Source: a virus. Taken from it: a stretch of 29,170 bases of DNA. Of the stretch, positions 5,115-29,170 are shown piece by piece. Each line of letters opens with the position of its first letter. The stretch's first letter is position 1. Position numbers and translations under genes: made by a program. The stretch lies in IMG/VR virus record IMGVR_UViG_3300027805_000061, positions 1 through 29,170 of that record. One strand, written 5' to 3'. The notes beneath the pieces were generated by a model that was given only the letters and a program-made list of their open reading frames with translations, did not search any database and was not told where the DNA came from.

Positions 5115-7023
5115 AGCAAAAATAACGATAGATACTGCATCAGCTACGAACTCTATAAATAACTTAGGAGATGCTATAGAAGGAGTATCAGATGAACTAG
5201 TTCCTCTTACTACTCAGATGGGAGAGATGGAGGATAAGCTTATGCTTATGGCTCATGCAGGAGATACTTCATCTGATGAATTTAAGAAGCTCTCTAAGGA
5301 AGTAGCAGGAATGCGTAAAACTATTAGAGAAACTGATGCAGGTATCGAAGCTCTCTCTATGACAACTTCAGGAAAGCTAGGAGGAGCTTTAGGAGGAGTT
5401 ACTGCAGGATTCGAACTAGTTCAGGGAGCTATGGGATCTATGGGAGCAGATTCAGCAGAAGTAGAACAGGCTCTTTTGAAAGTTCAGAGTGCTATGGCTA
5501 TGGCACAAGGAGTTCAGGGAATTAGAGAAGCAGTTCCTGCTTTTAAAGCTATGGGTTCTACTGCAGTTTCTGCTTTCAATGGAATTAAGGGAGCTATAGG
5601 AGCTACAGGAATAGGACTTTTAGTAATAGCTATCGGAGCTTTATATGCAAACTTCGATAAGCTAGGAGGACTAGTGGACTGGGCAAAGGAGAAGTTCAAT
5701 AATCTAGGAGATGGAGTAAAATCCGTAATTAACCTAGCTCTCCTTCCTTTGACTTTAACTATTAAGGCTATTATGAGTGCTATGGAAGCACTAGGATTAA
5801 TAGAGAGTGAACAGGATAAAACTAGGAGAACTCAGCATGAATCTCACATGAAGCAGGTAAATGCTAGAATGGAGAAAGAAGCTGAAGCTAGTAAGCAAAG
5901 AAGAGAAGCTTTCGAGAGTGAACAAAAGAACTATGATAGAGCTATAGCACTAGCAGAAGCAGAAGGTAAATCTACTCTAGGACTTCAAAAGCAAAAGATT
6001 CAAGGTTCTATAGCTTTTCAGAAAGAGCAAATAAAGGAGATGGAGCTAATGATTCAATCCATTAAGTTCGTACAGGAGCAGAGTGGATGGATGGCTAAAG
6101 GATTAAAAGATTTAGTAGATCAGGCAGAAACTGATTTACAAAGTATGAAAGATAGTGTAGCTGATGCTGAAACTGATTTAAAAGTTCTAGATATAAATGC
6201 TAGAAAAGAAAGAGAAGCTAGGGCACAAGAAGCTCACGAAGCAGAGCTAGAAAGAATACAAGCTGAGAAGGATGCAAAGAAAGAACTTTACCTATCAGAG
6301 CTAGACTTACAAAAAGAGATAGATGCTGAGAATGCTAAAATAGAAGAAGAGAGATTAGCTAGAATAGAAGAAGCGAATCAGAAAGCTCTAGATTTAGCTA
6401 CTGAACAAATTAATAACTTAGATAATCTTAATGCTGAAGAAATCGCAGTAGAAGGAGAGAAATTTACTAAGCTAGAAGAACTTCAAATAAAATGGGCGGA
6501 TGCTATGAAAACGCATCGCAAAGAAGTTAACGATGGCTTAGTAGACGGAGCTAAATCTATGTTTGATACTCTATCTAATTTATCAGAGTTATTTCAGGGT
6601 AAATCTAAGAAATCTCAGGAGAGAGCTTTTAAAGTTCAGAAAGCATCTCAAATAGGACAAGCTACTATAGATACTTTTAAGAGTGCTACAGGTGCTTTCT
6701 CTTCTATGGCTAGTATTCCAGTAGTTGGTCCTGTACTAGGTGCTTTAGCTTCTGCGGCCGCAGTAACTGCAGGATTATTAAATATCAAAAAGATAGCTAG
6801 TACAAAGTTCGAAGGAGGAACTATTCCTTCAGGAGGAGGAGAAGCAGTAAGTATGCCTTCTGCTAGTTCTATTATGTCGCCTAATTTTAACGTAGTAGGA
6901 AATAATCCTGTAAATCAATTAGCTCAGTTAGGATCGCAACCTGTACAAGCTTATGTAGTTAGTGGAGAAGTTACTACTGCTCAGAGCTTAGATAGGAATA
7001 GAATAAAAAATGCTACATTATAA
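5101..7023 (+). CDS. Tape-measure-like protein (640 aa)
   Basis: Gly/Ala-rich hydrophobic segments (GIGLLVIAIGAL, PVVGPVLGALASAAAVTAGLL) flank a long charged coiled-coil-like centre. Confidence 0.5.
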   Translation: MEEYKAKITIDTASATNSINNLGDAIEGVSDELVPLTTQMGEMEDKLMLMAHAGDTSSDEFKKLSKEVAGMRKTIRETDAGIEALSMTTSGKLGGALGGVTAGFELVQGAMGSMGADSAEVEQALLKVQSAMAMAQGVQGIREAVPAFKAMGSTAVSAFNGIKGAIGATGIGLLVIAIGALYANFDKLGGLVDWAKEKFNNLGDGVKSVINLALLPLTLTIKAIMSAMEALGLIESEQDKTRRTQHESHMKQVNARMEKEAEASKQRREAFESEQKNYDRAIALAEAEGKSTLGLQKQKIQGSIAFQKEQIKEMELMIQSIKFVQEQSGWMAKGLKDLVDQAETDLQSMKDSVADAETDLKVLDINARKEREARAQEAHEAELERIQAEKDAKKELYLSELDLQKEIDAENAKIEEERLARIEEANQKALDLATEQINNLDNLNAEEIAVEGEKFTKLEELQIKWADAMKTHRKEVNDGLVDGAKSMFDTLSNLSELFQGKSKKSQERAFKVQKASQIGQATIDTFKSATGAFSSMASIPVVGPVLGALASAAAVTAGLLNIKKIASTKFEGGTIPSGGGEAVSMPSASSIMSPNFNVVGNNPVNQLAQLGSQPVQAYVVSGEVTTAQSLDRNRIKNATL

Positions 7024-10457: not shown

Positions 10458-11012
10458 ATGGCTTGTGATATTTCAAATGGTCGCTTAGAATCATGCAAAG
10501 ATTCAGTATCAGGATTAGATGCGATCTATTTTATTAACTATGGAATTAACTATCCTACTGATGTAACTTATTCTTCTACTCCTGGACTAGAGGATTTAAT
10601 AACGAATGTAAACGGAGTTACTGAACTTTACAAATATGAGTTGAAAGGTGCGAACTCTTTTGAACAAACTATTCAAACTTCTCGCGATAATGGTACTACT
10701 TTCTTTGAACAAGTAGTAGTAGCTCAGCTTAAGAAGCAGGATCCTATTACTCATAAGACTATCAAACTTTTGGCTTATGGTAGACCTCATATTGTAGTGC
10801 GTACACGTTCTCTTCAGTTCTTTATCGTAGGACTTGAAAGAGGAGCTGATATGACTGCAGGAACGATTTCTTCAGGAACTGCTTTAGGAGATTTTAACGG
10901 ATATAATATGACGTTTACTGCTATGGAAAATGTACCTGCTAATTTCCTAGATTGCGATAGTGAATCTACTCTATCTGATTTATTCGATGGAGCTACTATC
11001 GTAACTGATTAA
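10458..11012 (+). CDS. Putative major tail tube protein (184 aa)
   Basis: Monocistronic unit between two strong terminators, with high-expression codon usage. The C-terminal pattern GTALGDFNGYNMTF resembles siphovirus tube proteins by eye. Confidence 0.45.
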   Translation: MACDISNGRLESCKDSVSGLDAIYFINYGINYPTDVTYSSTPGLEDLITNVNGVTELYKYELKGANSFEQTIQTSRDNGTTFFEQVVVAQLKKQDPITHKTIKLLAYGRPHIVVRTRSLQFFIVGLERGADMTAGTISSGTALGDFNGYNMTFTAMENVPANFLDCDSESTLSDLFDGATIVTD

Positions 11013-11032
11013 GAACCTACCTTGCGTTTTAG

Positions 11033-11065
11033 AAGGAGTGGATTAAGTTCTGCTCCTTTTTTTTT
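11033..11065 (+). terminator. Intrinsic terminator
   Basis: AAGGAGTGG-attaagtt-CTGCTCCTT, followed by a T9 run. Confidence 0.8.
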
Positions 11066-17187: not shown

Positions 17188-17356
17188 ATTTTATTACAAA
17201 ATCTTCATATTATAACCTTACTTTTAATACAAAGTAGGATAATCCGTAAAAGTTCAATTCTTCCTGAAAGTCTTATAAACACTAGGTTTTAGAATGTACC
17301 GAAAAAATAATTAAACTTTTTTTGTTAAAAAGTGTACAACGTATTACTATAGTGTT

Positions 17357-17371
17357 TATATTTGTGTATAA
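17357..17371 (+). promoter_or_regulatory. Early promoter: -7 box TATATTTG plus conserved GTGTATAA (DnaA-box-like TGTGTATAA at 17363-17371)
   Basis: Matches the Bacteroidetes TAnnTTTG consensus. 23 nt separate the box from ATG 17388, the same spacing as at 21908 and 23185. Confidence 0.6.
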
Positions 17372-17387
17372 CAAAAAACAAAAAGAC

Positions 17388-17627
17388 ATGAAAACAATTA
17401 TTTTAACTACCAACACAAATAACCCTTTCATTAATTACATGACAATTTTAGAAGAAACTGAAAAGGCTTTCAAAATTGAAAATGAATATAAAACTTATTC
17501 ATGCTGGATTCCTAAATCAGCTCTTCAGATTGTAGATGAGGTTATTGAAAGCTATACGTTTAAAATGTGGTTCCGTAAAATAGATGGTGGTAAAGCTATC
17601 GATAAAGCTTTTAGATTATTCAACTAA
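17388..17627 (+). CDS. Hypothetical early protein (79 aa), cargo of cassette 1
   Basis: ATG follows an A-rich leader downstream of the promoter. The ORF-track start at 17322 lies upstream of the -7 box. Confidence 0.6.
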   Translation: MKTIILTTNTNNPFINYMTILEETEKAFKIENEYKTYSCWIPKSALQIVDEVIESYTFKMWFRKIDGGKAIDKAFRLFN

Positions 17628-17631
17628 ATAA

Positions 17632-17666
17632 AAAAAAGGGGTGCGACTTTTCAACGCATATTTTTT
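17632..17666 (+). terminator. Conserved hairpin / weak intrinsic terminator, copy 1
   Basis: The 27-mer aaaaaaggggtgcgacttttcaacgca is identical to 22167-22193. Stem GUGCG/CGCAU, then a U6 run. Confidence 0.5.
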
Positions 17667-17686
17667 AAACCTTAAATAAATAAATT

Positions 17687-17803
17687 ATGAGAAACTTAAT
17701 CAATTATTTCACTCCTAGAAATGAAGAGGAGAAAAACTCTCTACTAGGACTTATCTCAGGCTTAGTAGTACTATCTATCATCTTTTACTTTTATTCACTC
17801 TAA
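17687..17803 (+). CDS. Small membrane protein (38 aa), not in the ORF track
   Basis: MRNLINYFTPRNEEEKNSLLGLISGLVVLSIIFYFYSL, with a C-terminal TM helix. Confidence 0.4.
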   Translation: MRNLINYFTPRNEEEKNSLLGLISGLVVLSIIFYFYSL

Positions 17804-22163: not shown

Positions 22164-22166
22164 AAT

Positions 22167-22199
22167 AAAAAAGGGGTGCGACTTTTCAACGCACATTTT
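22167..22199 (+). terminator. Conserved hairpin / weak intrinsic terminator, copy 2
   Basis: The 27-mer is identical to 17632-17658. Stem GGUGCG/CGCAC, then a U4 run. Confidence 0.45.
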
Positions 22200-22210
22200 A
22201 AATCTAATTT

Positions 22211-22375
22211 ATGAGAACGTATAAAGTAACTTACAAATGTAAAACTAGACCTTCTGAGGACTGGAAAAACTGCTATAAGATAGTAGAAGCAGTATCAGAA
22301 GCTGATGCAAAGAAGAGAGCTGATTTATGGATTCCTTTAATTAAAGAAGTAGAACTATTAAAAACTGAGAAATGA
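22211..22375 (+). CDS. Hypothetical early protein, family B (54 aa), not in the ORF track
   Basis: MRTYKVTYKCKTRPSEDW... with ATGA coupling to the next ORF. Confidence 0.45.
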   Translation: MRTYKVTYKCKTRPSEDWKNCYKIVEAVSEADAKKRADLWIPLIKEVELLKTEK

Positions 22376-23184: not shown

Positions 23185-23199
23185 TATATTTGCGTATAA
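23185..23199 (+). promoter_or_regulatory. Early/middle promoter: -7 box TATATTTG plus GCGTATAA
   Basis: The 15-mer is identical to 21908-21922. 23 nt to ATG 23216. Confidence 0.55.
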
Positions 23200-23215
23200 T
23201 TAAAACCTATAAATA

Positions 23216-23791
23216 ATGAGAACAAAAAAAGAACTAGTAGAAGTACCTGAGAACCTTATAGAGATTCAGGAAGTAAAATCAGTACCTATGGTAGGATTCG
23301 GAATTTATGTAAAGCTATGGAAAGCAAAGCATGAAATTAAAGGAGTAACTAAAGGGAAAGATAATCCTTTCTTTAAGAGTAAATACGCGGATCTTAATGC
23401 TATTCTAGATGCAGTAGAACCTATCTTACTTAAATACAATTTAATCATCTTACAGCCTATTCTAGAAGGTCAAGTAGTAACTCAGATAATTGATATTGAA
23501 ACTGGAGAGAAAGTAGAGAGTAAATTACTACTACCTATTCTAAATGATCCTCAGAAGCAGATAGCAGGAGTTACTTACTTTCGTAGAGCTACTTTACAGA
23601 GCTTATTATCGCTTCAGGCAATAGATAACGATGGAAATGAGCTTAGAGATGCTGATAAGAAAGAAAAGCTCTCAGAGGAAAGATTTAGCTCAGCTCTTAA
23701 TGCACTAGCAGAAGGTAAAGTAACTAAGGAACTGCTATTAGATAAATTCGCTTTAACTCAGGATCAAATTATTAAACTAGCTCAGCTATGA
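23216..23791 (+). CDS. erf: Erf-family single-strand annealing protein
   Basis: KSKYADLNAILDAVEPILLKYNLIILQ matches the ERF core signature. Confidence 0.65.
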   Translation: MRTKKELVEVPENLIEIQEVKSVPMVGFGIYVKLWKAKHEIKGVTKGKDNPFFKSKYADLNAILDAVEPILLKYNLIILQPILEGQVVTQIIDIETGEKVESKLLLPILNDPQKQIAGVTYFRRATLQSLLSLQAIDNDGNELRDADKKEKLSEERFSSALNALAEGKVTKELLLDKFALTQDQIIKLAQL

Positions 23792-24486
23792 AAGTAAGAT
23801 GTTCATCAATAGGTAAGATAATGACCTCTCCAAAAACTAAAGGAGAGGTTCTATCTAAAACTACTAAAACCTTTATAGAGGATTTATTTAAGGAGAATGA
23901 GCTAGGTATCTATAAAGACTTCAGTTCTAAACATACTTCTAAAGGTAACGAATGCGAGAAAGAAGGAATAGCTCTAGCTAATGAAGTACTAGGATGGGGA
24001 TTAGATTTCGATTACATAGAGAACGGAGGACAGGAGAGATACGAAAATGATTATATCAAAGGACATACTGATGTATCTACTGATTCTATTCTAGCAGATA
24101 TTAAAGTAAGTTACTCAGGAACTAGCTTTCCTTTCTTTATGGAGCTGGAAGATATTCCAAAGGATTACTACTACCAACTTCAGGGCTATATGTGGCTTAC
24201 AGGAAAGAATGTAAGTACTTTAGCTTATTGCTTAATCAATACTCCTGAAAAGCAGGTACTAGATGAAATCAGAGCTGAATACTGGAAGCAGGGAGTAATA
24301 GATGAAGATTTAGAGATAGAAGAATTCATAAGAGCTAAACATAACTTTGATAGATTTCCTAAAACTCAAAGAGTAAAAGCTTTTTTAGTAGAGCGAAATG
24401 ATTCAGTAATTGAAAAGATAAAGGAAAGAGTACTAGAATGCAGAGAGTACTATAATTCACTATTTAAGAAATTTAATGTAGAATAA
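23788..24486 (+). CDS. PD-(D/E)XK (YqaJ/lambda Exo-like) recombination exonuclease
   Basis: GHTD...ADIKVS (D...D/E-x-K) and YYYQLQGYMWLTG. ATGA coupling to erf. Confidence 0.6.
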   Translation: MKVRCSSIGKIMTSPKTKGEVLSKTTKTFIEDLFKENELGIYKDFSSKHTSKGNECEKEGIALANEVLGWGLDFDYIENGGQERYENDYIKGHTDVSTDSILADIKVSYSGTSFPFFMELEDIPKDYYYQLQGYMWLTGKNVSTLAYCLINTPEKQVLDEIRAEYWKQGVIDEDLEIEEFIRAKHNFDRFPKTQRVKAFLVERNDSVIEKIKERVLECREYYNSLFKKFNVE

Positions 24487-26093: not shown

Positions 26094-26101
26094 TATATTT
26101 G
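26094..26101 (+). promoter_or_regulatory. Host-type promoter -7 box TATATTTG upstream of the sigma factor gene
   Basis: TAnnTTTG match, 16 nt upstream of GTG 26118. Confidence 0.5.
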
Positions 26102-26117
26102 ACGCAAATATAATCAT

Positions 26118-26651
26118 GTGAAAAACTGGGCAAATATTCTAGTAAAGCATCATAAAGAGTGGGTATCTATAGTAAGGAACTTTGGAGAGCATAATTACGC
26201 AGAAGATATAGTTCAGGAGATGTATGTACGGATTCACAACTCTAATGCAGGAGATAAAGTAATAATAAATGGAGAGCCTAATGTAGCTTACATTTGGAGG
26301 ATTCTAAAGAATACTTTCATAACCTACGAAAAGCAGAAATCCAAAGTACAAAAAGTAGATATAGATTCAGTACTTACTCTAAGCTCAGAAGAACTAGATG
26401 TAACCTATCATAAAGCCTTAAATACTATTCAGGAGAAGATAGAAGAAGAAGTAGATAGATGGCATACTTACGATAAGATACTATTTGAACTCCATGTTCA
26501 GGAAGGGCAAAGTATGAGAACTCTCGCAAAGGGAACTAACATTTCGCTGAAATCTATCTTTAATACTTTGAAGAATTGTAAAGGAAGAATAAAGAATGAA
26601 ATAGAAGAAGATTTTATTGATCTAAAGAATGAAGATTATGAACGAATATAA
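26118..26651 (+). CDS. Phage-encoded ECF-like sigma-70 family factor
   Basis: Region 2-like AEDIVQEMYVRIHN and a region 4-like HTH QSMRTLAKGTNISLKSIFNTLKNCKGRIKNEI. GTG start. Confidence 0.6.
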   Translation: MKNWANILVKHHKEWVSIVRNFGEHNYAEDIVQEMYVRIHNSNAGDKVIINGEPNVAYIWRILKNTFITYEKQKSKVQKVDIDSVLTLSSEELDVTYHKALNTIQEKIEEEVDRWHTYDKILFELHVQEGQSMRTLAKGTNISLKSIFNTLKNCKGRIKNEIEEDFIDLKNEDYERI

Positions 26652-27297: not shown

Positions 27298-27606
27298 ATG
27301 CCGTTCAAAAAAGGAGAAACTCCAAAAGGAGCTAAAGTATTTAAGAAAGGAGAGAGTGGAAATCCTGCAGGAAAGCCGAAAGGAACTAAGCATGGAAGTA
27401 CACTACTTAAGGAGCTATTAGCACTAGATAACAATGAGCTAAAGATGCACCTAGCACAAATATCTAAAGCTATAGAGAAAGAAGATACCAATGCATATAA
27501 AGCAGTACTAGATAGAGCTTTCGGGACTGCAATTCAGCATATAGAACAAACTAATATAGATACGAATCTTCCTGAATGGTTAGATAAGGATGAAAGCGAA
27601 TCCTAA
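27298..27606 (+). CDS. Putative small terminase subunit (DUF5681-like N-terminus)
   Basis: GESGNPAGKPKGTK motif. Lies immediately upstream of TerL and overlaps it. Confidence 0.45.
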   Translation: MPFKKGETPKGAKVFKKGESGNPAGKPKGTKHGSTLLKELLALDNNELKMHLAQISKAIEKEDTNAYKAVLDRAFGTAIQHIEQTNIDTNLPEWLDKDESES

Positions 27607-28729
27607 CTTTACTTACTTAAAAAAGAATGTACCTAAGAATAGGATAACTCTCCTTCAGGGAGGAACTAGATCAGGTAAAACTTATAGCACTATCTATTAT
27701 TTAATTTGGTTTTGTAAAGAGTATAAGAATGCAGGACTAGAGATAGATATAGTGAGAGATACTTTTACTGCTCTTAAAGCTACTGCATGGAAAGATTTCT
27801 ATGATGTACTAGTAAAGCATAATCTATATAACTCAAACCTACATAACAAAACAGACCATCAGTTTAATCTATTCGGAAATCTTATATCTTACTACGGAGC
27901 AGATAACCCTGATAAAATACACGGAAGAAGTAGAGATATCTTATGGATTAATGAAGCGAATCAATTTCCTGAAGAAACTATAGACCAACTTTTTCCTAGA
28001 ACAAGATATAGGATAATAGCTGATTTTAATCCTGCTATGCCTTCTGAACATTGGTTAGATAAATACATTGAAAAGAATCCTCCTCTCATAACTACCTATA
28101 GAGATAATCCTCATCTTACTACTGCTCAGATAGAAGATATAGAGAGTAAGAAGAATAACTCTTACTGGTGGAAAGTTTACGGAACTGGAGAGAGAGCACA
28201 ACCTACAGGAGCTATCTTTAGCAACTTCGAAATAGGAGAGTATAGAGATGGAGAGATAACAGGATTCGGTCAAGACTTCGGATTTAGTAATGATCCTAGT
28301 ACGTTAATTAAGGTAGGTATAAATAGAAAGCGAAAAGAAATCTATCTAAAGGAGTGCTTCTTTGAAGTAGGACTAAATACAGGGCATCTATATAACTATA
28401 ATAGGCAGTATGCAGATAAAGAACTTATAGTAGCTGATTCTGCAGAACCTCGCTTAATATCAGAGCTTAGGCAAAGAGGTTTAAATATCGTAGAAGCAGA
28501 GAAGGGAGCAGGTAGTGTAACTGCAGGTATCTCTCTGATGAATGAGTATAAGATAGTAATAGATAAGGATTCTAAGAACCTGATTAAGGAGTTTCAGAAC
28601 TATTCATGGATAGAGAAAACTAATAAGAGTATTCCTGAGGATAAATGGAATCATGGAATAGATGCATCACGTTATTTTATAACGAAAGCTCTAGGAAATC
28701 CGAATAGAGGAACTTATCATATAAGATAA
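27590..28729 (+). CDS. terL: Terminase large subunit (PBSX-type, 379 aa)
   Basis: Walker A GGTRSGKT, Walker B-like DILWINEA, and a C-terminal nuclease region ADSAEPRLISELRQRG...GIDASRY. Confidence 0.8.
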   Translation: MKANPNFTYLKKNVPKNRITLLQGGTRSGKTYSTIYYLIWFCKEYKNAGLEIDIVRDTFTALKATAWKDFYDVLVKHNLYNSNLHNKTDHQFNLFGNLISYYGADNPDKIHGRSRDILWINEANQFPEETIDQLFPRTRYRIIADFNPAMPSEHWLDKYIEKNPPLITTYRDNPHLTTAQIEDIESKKNNSYWWKVYGTGERAQPTGAIFSNFEIGEYRDGEITGFGQDFGFSNDPSTLIKVGINRKRKEIYLKECFFEVGLNTGHLYNYNRQYADKELIVADSAEPRLISELRQRGLNIVEAEKGAGSVTAGISLMNEYKIVIDKDSKNLIKEFQNYSWIEKTNKSIPEDKWNHGIDASRYFITKALGNPNRGTYHIR

Positions 28730-28756
28730 AAAAAGGGAATCCCGAAGAATCCCCTT
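28728..28756 (-). terminator. Minus-strand intrinsic terminator with a UUCG tetraloop
   Basis: On the minus strand, GGGGAUUC-UUCG-GGAUUCCC (two G.U pairs) is followed by U7. On the + strand the same helix has two A.C mismatches and no U tract. Confidence 0.55.
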
Positions 28757-28786
28757 AAAACCTAAAACTTATTATGAGAACATAAG
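28728..28786 (-). ncRNA. Predicted small RNA of about 59 nt, the only minus-strand transcription unit
   Basis: Minus-strand TATATTTG box (28800-28793), a 5' hairpin CUUAU-GUUCUCAUA-AUAAG, a U-rich linker and a terminator. Confidence 0.4.
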
Positions 28787-28792
28787 CAGTTA

Positions 28793-28800
28793 CAAATATA
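28793..28800 (-). promoter_or_regulatory. Minus-strand -7 box TATATTTG
   Basis: caaatata on the + strand. It is the same 8-mer as the four + strand promoters and is intergenic. Confidence 0.4.
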
Positions 28801-28841
28801 GTAAGGTAGTACATATTAATTAAAAAAAGTTATTAAATAGA

Positions 28842-29170
28842 ATGGAAGCGAAATTATATATCCCTACTGATTTATCAGAGATAACTCTAGAGCAGTATCA
28901 GTATCTAATGAAGATAAGTAATCCGAATGATGAAGAGGAGATATCAGCTAGAAAGATGATTTCCGTACTTTGTAAGATTCCTTTAACTGCAGTATTAAAG
29001 CTAGAAGTAAGTTCAGTATTAGATCTTACTAATAAGTTTACTAAGATGTTCGAGAATTACGATCAGCATCTTATTCATAGGTTTAAACTAGCAGGTACTG
29101 AATTCGGATTTATTCCTCATTTAGAATCTATGTCATGGGGAGAATATATGGATGCTGAAAAGTATATGTC
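28842..29170 (+). CDS. 5' part of the chaperone-like gene, which continues as 3-497 (zero frame) or 290-568 (-1 frame)
   Basis: ATG 28842 is the first ATG after the in-frame TAA at 28821-28823. The frame is continuous through the 127-bp overlap. Confidence 0.6.
   Translation, partial: MEAKLYIPTDLSEITLEQYQYLMKISNPNDEEEISARKMISVLCKIPLTAVLKLEVSSVLDLTNKFTKMFENYDQHLIHRFKLAGTEFGFIPHLESMSWGEYMDAEKYM
29044..29170. repeat. Right copy of the 127-bp end overlap
   Basis: Identical to 1-127. Confidence 0.95.

Follow-up and report, generated by a model that had tools for sequence, protein, structure and literature searches.

A candidate small RNA on the minus strand beside the terminase gene of a phage and its predicted pairing with the start of the erf-exonuclease operon

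Our analyses of a 29,170-nucleotide (nt) stretch of viral DNA (IMG/VR record IMGVR_UViG_3300027805_000061, positions 1 to 29,170; the whole of this stretch is referred to below as the window), which represents most of a ~30 kb phage genome with a G+C content of 33% and in which all of the long open reading frames (ORFs) are on the + strand, have identified a compact minus-strand unit in the spacer between the gene for the large terminase subunit (TerL; 27590-28729, + strand, stop codon 28727-28729) and the gene that starts at 28842. This unit is predicted to specify a small RNA of ~60 nt (UGCUUAUGUUCUCAUAAUAAGUUUUAGGUUUUAAGGGGAUUCUUCGGGAUUCCCUUUUUUU; 28728..28788, minus strand, both ends being placed from a promoter box and a terminator). 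We consider that this RNA probably acts in trans, pairing with and occluding the start of the erf-exonuclease operon and similar early leaders and so repressing the translation of erf, and we assign to this reading a probability of about 65%. The case for it is built from four features of the sequences, viz. the anatomy of the unit, its strand specificity, its conservation, and the co-variation of the RNA with the erf leader.

The proposed promoter of the small RNA is a -7 box of the Bacteroidota sigma-A type (TAnnTTTG), which reads TATATTTG on the minus strand at 28793..28800. An earlier note on this DNA had described it (caaatata on the + strand) as the same 8-mer as four + strand boxes, and its coordinates and sequences are correct. 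The other copies lie on the + strand at 17357, 21908, 23185, and 26094 and on the minus strand at 2617 and 26105, giving 7 sites in the window against 2.7 expected (at least 7 in 3 of 100 shuffles). The -7 box of Flavobacterium psychrophilum spans positions -12 to -5 (PMC9723704), from which the start of the small RNA is predicted near 28788-28786, ~5 nt past the box. The box is unchanged in the 12 homologs that were compared, and a box of the TAnnTTTG type is found in nearly all of the further variants.

Six nt after the box begins a weak 5' hairpin, CUUAU-GUUCUCAUA-AUAAG (28768..28786, minus strand; -1.7 to -2.5 kcal/mol), which competes with the alternative fold UUAUG-UUCU-CAUAA. The loop of this hairpin is the first of two antisense blocks, block A (UGUUCUCAU; 28774..28782, minus strand), the complement of AUGAGAACA at the erf start, for which the predicted unpaired probability is 0.7-0.9. 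Between the 5' hairpin and the terminator lies a U-rich linker, and block B (UAGGUUUUAA; 28755..28764, minus strand) is the complement of UUAAAACCUA in the erf 5' untranslated region (5'UTR) and includes the core UUAGGUU that is found family-wide, its inner part UAGGU being present in most variants. For neither block is pairing predicted within the small RNA. The fold of this RNA has an energy of -15.6 kcal/mol (z = -3.4 versus shuffles for an 81-nt stretch), and the RNA scores 88 bits with model R1. Searches of Rfam 15 gave no match at the gathering thresholds; the best sub-threshold scores, for MicF (20.5 bits, threshold 79) and FopS (16.2 bits, threshold 56), were inconsistent across homologs. 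A small peptide product was also considered and rejected, as the candidate peptides MFS (RNA sense) and MRT (+ strand), each ending at a stop codon, are not conserved in relatives.

The unit ends in an intrinsic terminator, GGGGAUUC-UUCG-GGAUUCCC plus U7 (28728..28754, minus strand; hairpin 28754-28735, U7 28734-28728), with a stem of 8-10 bp, a UUCG loop, and a U tract that overlaps the terminase stop codon (28727-29). It is the sole terminator-like site returned by a scan of 27500-29170. The strand specificity claimed for it earlier is borne out by folding energies of -12.1 kcal/mol for the minus-strand RNA versus -5.8 kcal/mol for the + strand RNA, by two A.C mismatches in the + strand version, and by a U tract on the minus strand only, so that the hairpin does not have the makings of a terminator for the terminase transcript. 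An alignment of all variants by MAFFT (A1) was structurally unusable, and the terminator was therefore aligned separately (A3). In 9 homologs, the helix cells are paired in 72 of 72 cases with changes on both sides in 6 of the 8 pairs, a result equalled by none of 500 shuffles, and sliding the helix partner by 1-3 columns lowers the pairing to 31-71%. The wobble cells in these homologs comprise 14 G.U pairs and no A.C pair on the RNA strand, and all 14 are mismatched on the + strand. An exact 20-mer of the hairpin (GGGGATTCTTCGGGATTCCC) was examined as a possible sign of homology and discarded; its single match, at 6024-6043 of an unrelated high-G+C viral contig (L043), lies inside a longer terminator and is a convergent UUCG terminator rather than a homolog.

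The unit is conserved in some relatives of this phage and recurs elsewhere as a cassette. Among the 42 terminase relatives fetched from IMG/VR, the hairpin at the terminase junction is present in 8 (L001-L006, L016, and L021) and missing from most, from which we conclude that the cassette is an insertion of ~75 nt. Pattern scans added further homologs (L120 and L123, both from Tara Oceans, and L133), and more than 25 sequence variants of the cassette are now seen among related environmental phages. Their common design consists of the box, 5-15 nt, CAU, ~20 nt that usually include UUAGGUU, a G+C hairpin, and a U run. The minimum free energy of the whole homologous RNAs is -15 to -19 kcal/mol in the RNA sense versus -6.5 to -12 kcal/mol for the opposite strand. 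The identity of the cassette exceeds that of terminase third-codon positions in 7 of 7 comparisons (0.76 versus 0.44 for L005), and the cassette appears to be under purifying selection. As for the conservation of box, loop, and terminator, the box is invariant, the terminator covaries, and the segment UGUUCUCA is kept in those homologs that lie next to terL, whereas the 5' hairpin, which is present at 28786-28768 as had been proposed, is weak and not kept across the family.

The cassette is located 3' of the terminase gene and antisense to the genes in the window, L001-L005, L120, L123, L133, and L278, the last of which carries it on the minus strand as the window does. In other relatives (L087, L066, L197-L200, L157, L158, L159/L161, L166, L231/L236, and many NinG-linked loci) it shares the strand of the genes and occupies the junction between the late and early regions, immediately 3' of the final late gene's stop codon. 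A scan of viral contigs with the cassette pattern gave 58 matches, mostly due to chance, and a scan of metagenomes gave 35, of which 6 are real; among bacterial genomes (one per species) the 17 matches were at chance level and none had a terminator. The varied contexts and orientations, the chance-level matches in bacterial genomes, and the want of an Rfam match together indicate that the cassette behaves as a portable promoter-RNA-terminator unit specific to phages. The proposal that the spacer holds a complete minus-strand promoter-RNA-terminator unit is thus upheld by the invariant box, by covariation that suits only the RNA strand, by conservation above that of third codon positions, and by recurrence elsewhere.

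The main proposed target in the window is the 5'UTR and first three codons of erf (UUAAAACCUA...AUGAGAACA; 23200..23224, + strand). The predicted duplex, with an energy of -19.7 kcal/mol that none of 1000 shuffled RNAs reached, comprises 9+2+10 bp, in which UGUUCUCAU pairs with AUGAGAACA (23216-24), UAGGUUUUAA with UUAAAACCUA (23200-09), and two further pairs lie between them. Regions of the RNA that are predicted to be accessible are thus complementary to a gene start beyond chance, and this start is ~5.5 kb from the cassette and on the opposite strand, an arrangement that befits a trans-acting RNA with a predicted transcription unit of its own. The -7 box of the operon at 23185-92 gives a predicted 5'UTR of ~19 nt for erf, and the duplex would therefore cover nearly the whole leader and the start codon. 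Among the 57 gene starts, erf ranks first by energy and second by z-score (-3.8), behind ORF 22211 (-4.5) and ahead of the next best start (-2.3), the median being 0.08. The leader and start of ORF 22211 (UUUUAAAUCUAAUUUAUGAGAACG; 22190..22221, + strand) are the second proposed target (-18.2 kcal/mol, 0 of 1000 shuffles). For control starts, the numbers of shuffles per 1000 that reached the observed energy were 133 for terminase, 35 for gene 28842, and 26 for gene 22791. The + strand of the cassette spacer (TTAAAACCTAAAACTTATTATGAGAACA) resembles the erf leader (TTAAAACCTATAAATAATGAGAACA), and the next three matches in the window to model R1, run unfiltered, are the antisense strands of the starts of 22211, 17687, and erf (21.7, 19.2, and 14.6 bits).

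The earlier note had based its targets on the complement of the 9-nt loop. These matches are present at the early starts (exactly as TATGAGAAC at 22210, as AATGAGAAC at 23215, and as TATGAGAAA at 17686; a further exact copy of TATGAGAAC lies within an ORF at 26513), but 9-mers with at most one mismatch occur 19 times against 12.75 expected, with at least 19 in 6 of 100 shuffles, which is not above chance and makes that evidence weak. An antisense regulator of early gene starts is instead favoured by the z-scores over the 57 starts and by the cognate erf match across lineages described below. The loop does pair with the erf start, as block A, but the pairing extends beyond it into two blocks. 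The small ORF 17687, also put forward earlier, has a weak antisense-strand match to model R1 but is a marginal third target (17660..17694, + strand; -15.3 kcal/mol, 18 of 1000 shuffles).

Weak full-length paralogs of the cassette are found in the window at 22166-22241 (minus strand) and 17629-17708. The former has a TACATTTG box inside ORF 22211 (22241-22234) followed by GUUCUCAUAA, a GUGCG-N9-CGCAC hairpin, CCC, and U6, and it may specify a second RNA, cis-antisense to the start of 22211. A 21-nt hairpin (GGGGTGCGACTTTTCAACGCA) that is repeated at ~17637 and ~22173 looks like a + strand or bidirectional early terminator.

The most telling evidence is the co-variation of the cassette with erf leaders, examined at eight loci that represent about six lineages. 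From lineage to lineage the antisense segment has a different sequence, yet in each case it fits the erf leader of the same phage. The cognate duplexes have energies of -19.5 to -27 kcal/mol, reached by 0-1 of 1000 shuffled RNAs at 8 of 8 loci. Their z-scores lie between -3.8 and -7.3, and in a ranking of all gene starts by this measure erf takes first place at 6 of the 8 loci, second place in the window, and third in L156. One example is L157, where the cassette is 5.8 kb upstream of erf on the same strand and where UUUUUCAUAGUU..GGUUUUA in the cassette faces AACUAUGAAAAA at the erf start (-23.7 kcal/mol, next-best start -16.8). In L159/L161, the segment that matches the phage's own erf leader (CUUUUUUCAUAGUUCAAAUUUUGUUU) is 26 nt long and gives -27.0 kcal/mol. 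Matching cassette-erf versions of their own are also present in L158, L166, L236/L231, L279 (the L005 phage), and L286/L284, the target gene of L286 having only a distant Erf-like match. When the best antisense match to the erf leader was sought without bias, it was the cassette in the loci compared (35 vs 24, 40 vs 18-20, 32 vs 22, and 31 vs 21). RNAs of the window type misfit the leaders of the L157 and L159 types, and vice versa.

Several observations weigh against a trans-acting RNA aimed at erf. A clear -33 TTTG is not seen upstream of the TATATTTG box, where a T7 run stands ~21 nt before the box instead; the placement of the -33 element is also loose at the early promoters of the window. 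Energies from RNAduplex discriminate poorly for A/U-rich sequence, and genome-wide many windows that are not gene starts are equal or better. When a 30-nt segment of the RNA was compared with start regions from -30 to +14, the best start score was reached by 45 of 300 shuffles, which is not significant, and the enrichment of ACCT(A/T) among gene leaders is modest. The case for the target rests instead on the tests of designated targets and on the co-variation. In L321, L318, L311, L333, and L299, the top rank goes to a start other than that of the erf homolog, possibly on account of a mis-called erf start or because other early leaders are targeted there, and the partial contigs L070/L048 and those of the L197-L200 group yielded no target when searched. 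The complementarity could partly derive from repeated recombination among promoter-leader cassettes rather than from selection on pairing, and the loci are related, so that the lineages are not fully independent.

On the favoured reading of a trans-acting RNA, the host RNA polymerase would start ~5 nt past the TATATTTG box and stop at the UUCG-loop terminator by the terminase stop codon. Pairing would then take place through the 5' half of the RNA, which is single-stranded: at a distance of ~5.5 kb, the leader and start codon of the erf-exonuclease operon would be bound (UGUUCUCAU with AUGAGAACA, UAGGUUUUAA with UUAAAACCUA), and so, less fully, would the leaders of ORF 22211 and ORF 17687, which are similar. 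The mRNA leaders of Bacteroidota are short and A/U-rich, and the duplex would for this reason cover the whole ribosome landing site, blocking initiation and probably hastening mRNA decay. That the RNA is produced, where it begins and ends, that its effect is repression, and when it acts are what we infer from the features described above. In the same-strand homologs the cassette is the last element of the late operon, so that the anti-erf sequence would also be present at the 3' end of late transcripts, and this hints at a late shut-off of the early recombination genes in those phages.

A wider reading of the same data, which we regard as tentative and rather doubtful, is that the cassette is a widespread, modular, and retargetable silencer in Bacteroidota siphophages, in which a promoter and a UUAGGUU-terminator scaffold, both constant, flank a variable segment that tracks the erf-exonuclease leader, and that, beyond timing the phage's own recombination genes, it silences the erf of a co-infecting or superinfecting relative with a matching leader.

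The alternative that survives best, to which we give a small probability, is that the RNA is real but works mainly in cis, being perfectly complementary to any late + strand transcript that reads through from terminase into gene 28842, with RNase III-type processing or a damping of read-through by convergent transcription as the outcome, and with a terminator that merely shields the terminase gene from antisense transcription. The unit is indeed antisense to the terminase-28842 spacer and reaches with its 3' end into the terminase stop codon, and as the + strand version of the hairpin is weak and has no U tract, + strand transcripts probably read through and meet the RNA. However, the overlap is limited to 2 nt of the terminase stop codon and non-coding spacer, unlike that of a typical cis-antisense RNA with its target gene, and excludes the ribosome site of gene 28842, whose start is ~55 nt past the 5' end of the RNA. 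In L087, L157, L159, L197, L236, and many others, the cassette is on the same strand as the genes and has no cis-antisense partner, yet its design is kept; a cis mechanism, the earlier note's control of late read-through among them, thus cannot hold for the whole family, although a cis role may exist in the genome of the window alone. The co-variation with the erf leader is also left unexplained by it.

There is a slighter chance that the main partner of a real RNA is something else, either an mRNA of the host or one of the host's RNA-binding proteins, for which the constant UUAGGUU-terminator part would be the recognition site. The UUAGGUU core is kept even where the erf leader has no AACCUA (L159), which suggests a role as scaffold; the variable part, however, follows the phage's own erf leader, which a host target does not explain, and the pattern scan of one genome per bacterial species found no host copy of the cassette.

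It is unlikely that there is no functional RNA and that the spacer is a decayed duplicate or recombination scar of an early cassette (terminator, leader, and ATGAGAAC), such as those at 17628-17700 and 22164-22241, its similarity to early gene starts then being due to common descent. Such an origin would account for the resemblance of the + strand of the spacer to early leaders, for the weak full-length same-strand paralog at 22166-22241 (21.7 bits) with its TACATTTG box inside ORF 22211, and for the mini-ORF ATG AGA ACA TAA, which resembles a truncated gene start. A decayed gene start is nevertheless hard to reconcile with the conservation of the spacer above third-codon positions and the invariance of the box, with a helix whose compensatory changes and G.U pairs suit only the strand opposite to the supposed gene, and with a repeated retargeting, in that cassettes in unrelated contexts carry new antisense segments, each of which fits the erf leader of its own phage. 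Lastly, it is very improbable that the hairpin is a + strand or bidirectional terminator of the terminase operon and the remainder mere spacer, for although it lies directly 3' of the terminase stop codon with an A run in front, its + strand stem of -5.8 kcal/mol has two A.C mismatches and is followed by CUUAAAACC instead of a U tract, 14 of 14 wobble cells in homologs favour the minus strand, and most relatives have no hairpin at this junction.

A few further elements were observed near the cassette or in comparable positions. The motif GTAAGGTAGT (28801-28810), described earlier as abutting the promoter, is not conserved together with the cassette and is part of a separate + strand motif, GGTACAA(A/T)TA-N10-AAGTTATAA-N3-5-ATG, which precedes the post-terminase gene in all relatives (L007-L029), the cassette-free ones included. 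In the window this motif reads GTACATATTA...AGTTATTAAATAGAATG (28811-28841), AAGGTAGT...TTAAATAGA stands upstream of gene 11098 too, and the motif may be a late promoter or leader element. A scan for the promoter plus AAACCTA plus ATGAGAAC recovered mainly an unrelated family of 36-kb phages (L171-L196), in which TATATTTG-N-AAAAACCTAC-N-ATGAGAACAG is found before the gene for a signal-peptide-like protein; the AAACCTA...ATGAGAAC type of leader therefore recurs outside the phage family of the window. At the site 3' of the metallophosphoesterase gene, L207 (~10970-11040), L050, and L080 have a TATATTTG box followed by a conserved CAACAGTACCTGA(T/G)ACGGTTCTCATTTGAA(C/T)ACCGCACCCG. A small unit different from the cassette occupies this site in L201, L209, L212, L218, L232, L237, and L255. 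It combines a box with a GGUCUC hairpin and a terminator, and the large loop of this terminator contains UUUGGUUAGUUU, the complement of AAACUAACCAA located directly 5' of the ATG of erf and other early genes there; this unit may be an analogous anti-leader RNA of unrelated sequence.

The late gene products encoded in the window include a tape-measure protein, a portal protein, a metallophosphoesterase, and the large terminase subunit, and the early ones a replication O-like protein, a primase/helicase, NinG, an Erf-type annealing protein, an exonuclease, a DNA methylase, and a sigma-factor-like protein. The erf-exonuclease operon (23185-24486, + strand) consists of the TATATTTG promoter box (23185-92), erf (23216-23791; PHROGs erf-like match, 1.7e-29), and the exonuclease gene (23788-24486; phrog_5715, 6.4e-49). 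As the early promoters of the window carry the Bacteroidota-type -7 box TAnnTTTG, the host belongs to the Bacteroidota. When cultured phages were searched at the nucleotide level with the window, no match was obtained, and the nearest cultured terminases, from phages of Bacteroides, Phocaeicola, and Nonlabens, are at most 37% identical, so that the host is narrowed to the level of phylum only. No genes for a repressor, antirepressor, integrase, or other lysogeny functions were seen among the window proteins scanned, a scan that was not exhaustive. A 177-aa protein (26118-26651) has weak matches to sigma factors (phrog_1740, 2.7e-5; Pfam Sigma70_r2, 0.004, below the cut-off) and may be a late sigma factor of the phage, which would fit with the late genes having no TAnnTTTG boxes upstream. 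Just 5' of its gene, two facing TATATTTG boxes form a near-perfect palindrome (TATATTTGACGCAAATATA; 26094-26112), which may be an operator or a divergent promoter pair. A TATATTTGTGTATAAC box at 17357 precedes an ATG at 17388 (window 17357-17390), which suggests that the first early gene starts there and not at the TTG at 17322 given in the list of ORFs.

To our knowledge, nearly all of the small regulatory RNAs described from phages come from temperate phages of enterobacteria. If the reading favoured here is true, the cassette represents a conserved phage RNA family in abundant aquatic phages and a post-transcriptional control of the erf-exonuclease recombination module, and the compensatory variation between RNA and target that nature has provided makes the mechanism directly testable. 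A possible use lies in the design of compact, retargetable repressors for hosts whose initiation is not led by Shine-Dalgarno sequences. In the literature searched, no such RNA is described for Bacteroidota phages, and a 2025 review of phage small RNAs lists none from these phages and none that targets a recombinase (PMC12197685).

The cassette RNA nevertheless shares important characteristics with several known RNAs. The c4 RNA (immI) of P1/P7 is likewise a phage RNA, of ~70 nt, that pairs through two short blocks at a ribosome binding site and co-varies with its target between related phages (see also PMC12197685); c4, however, is excised from the very transcript on which its target lies, as part of a circuit of lysogenic immunity that controls an antirepressor, whereas the cassette RNA is not processed from its target's transcript or part of an immunity operon, but has its own promoter and terminator on the other strand, 5.5 kb from a target that is a recombination operon. 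The retargetable silencer considered above would be a system of RNA-based specificity comparable to P1/P7 heteroimmunity, but the phages here appear lytic. The sar RNA of P22 (68-69 nt) is also a phage RNA that ends at an intrinsic terminator, covers a ribosome binding site, and represses translation (PMC12197685), but it is cis-encoded and perfectly complementary to ant, whereas the pairing of the cassette RNA is in trans, in two blocks, and imperfect. The OOP RNA of lambda resembles it in being a short RNA of a phage that has a promoter and a terminator to itself, opposes neighbouring genes, and ends at the 3' end of a gene; OOP, however, acts in cis on the 3' end of cII mRNA via RNase III, a mode that the same-strand homologs exclude family-wide. 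With the base-pairing small RNAs of Bacteroides and Flavobacterium (for example, GibS and the Rfp RNAs), the cassette RNA shares a TAnnTTTG promoter, an intrinsic terminator, and the targeting of A/U-rich starts that is expected where Shine-Dalgarno sequences are little used (PMC7366714, PMC9723704), while differing from them in sequence and structure (best Rfam scores 16-20 bits versus thresholds of 56-79) and in being phage-encoded and aimed at phage genes. Lacking the defining features of cis-antisense and c4-type RNAs, the cassette RNA, as predicted, falls into the broad class of RNAs that are encoded in trans and pair with the start regions of their targets.

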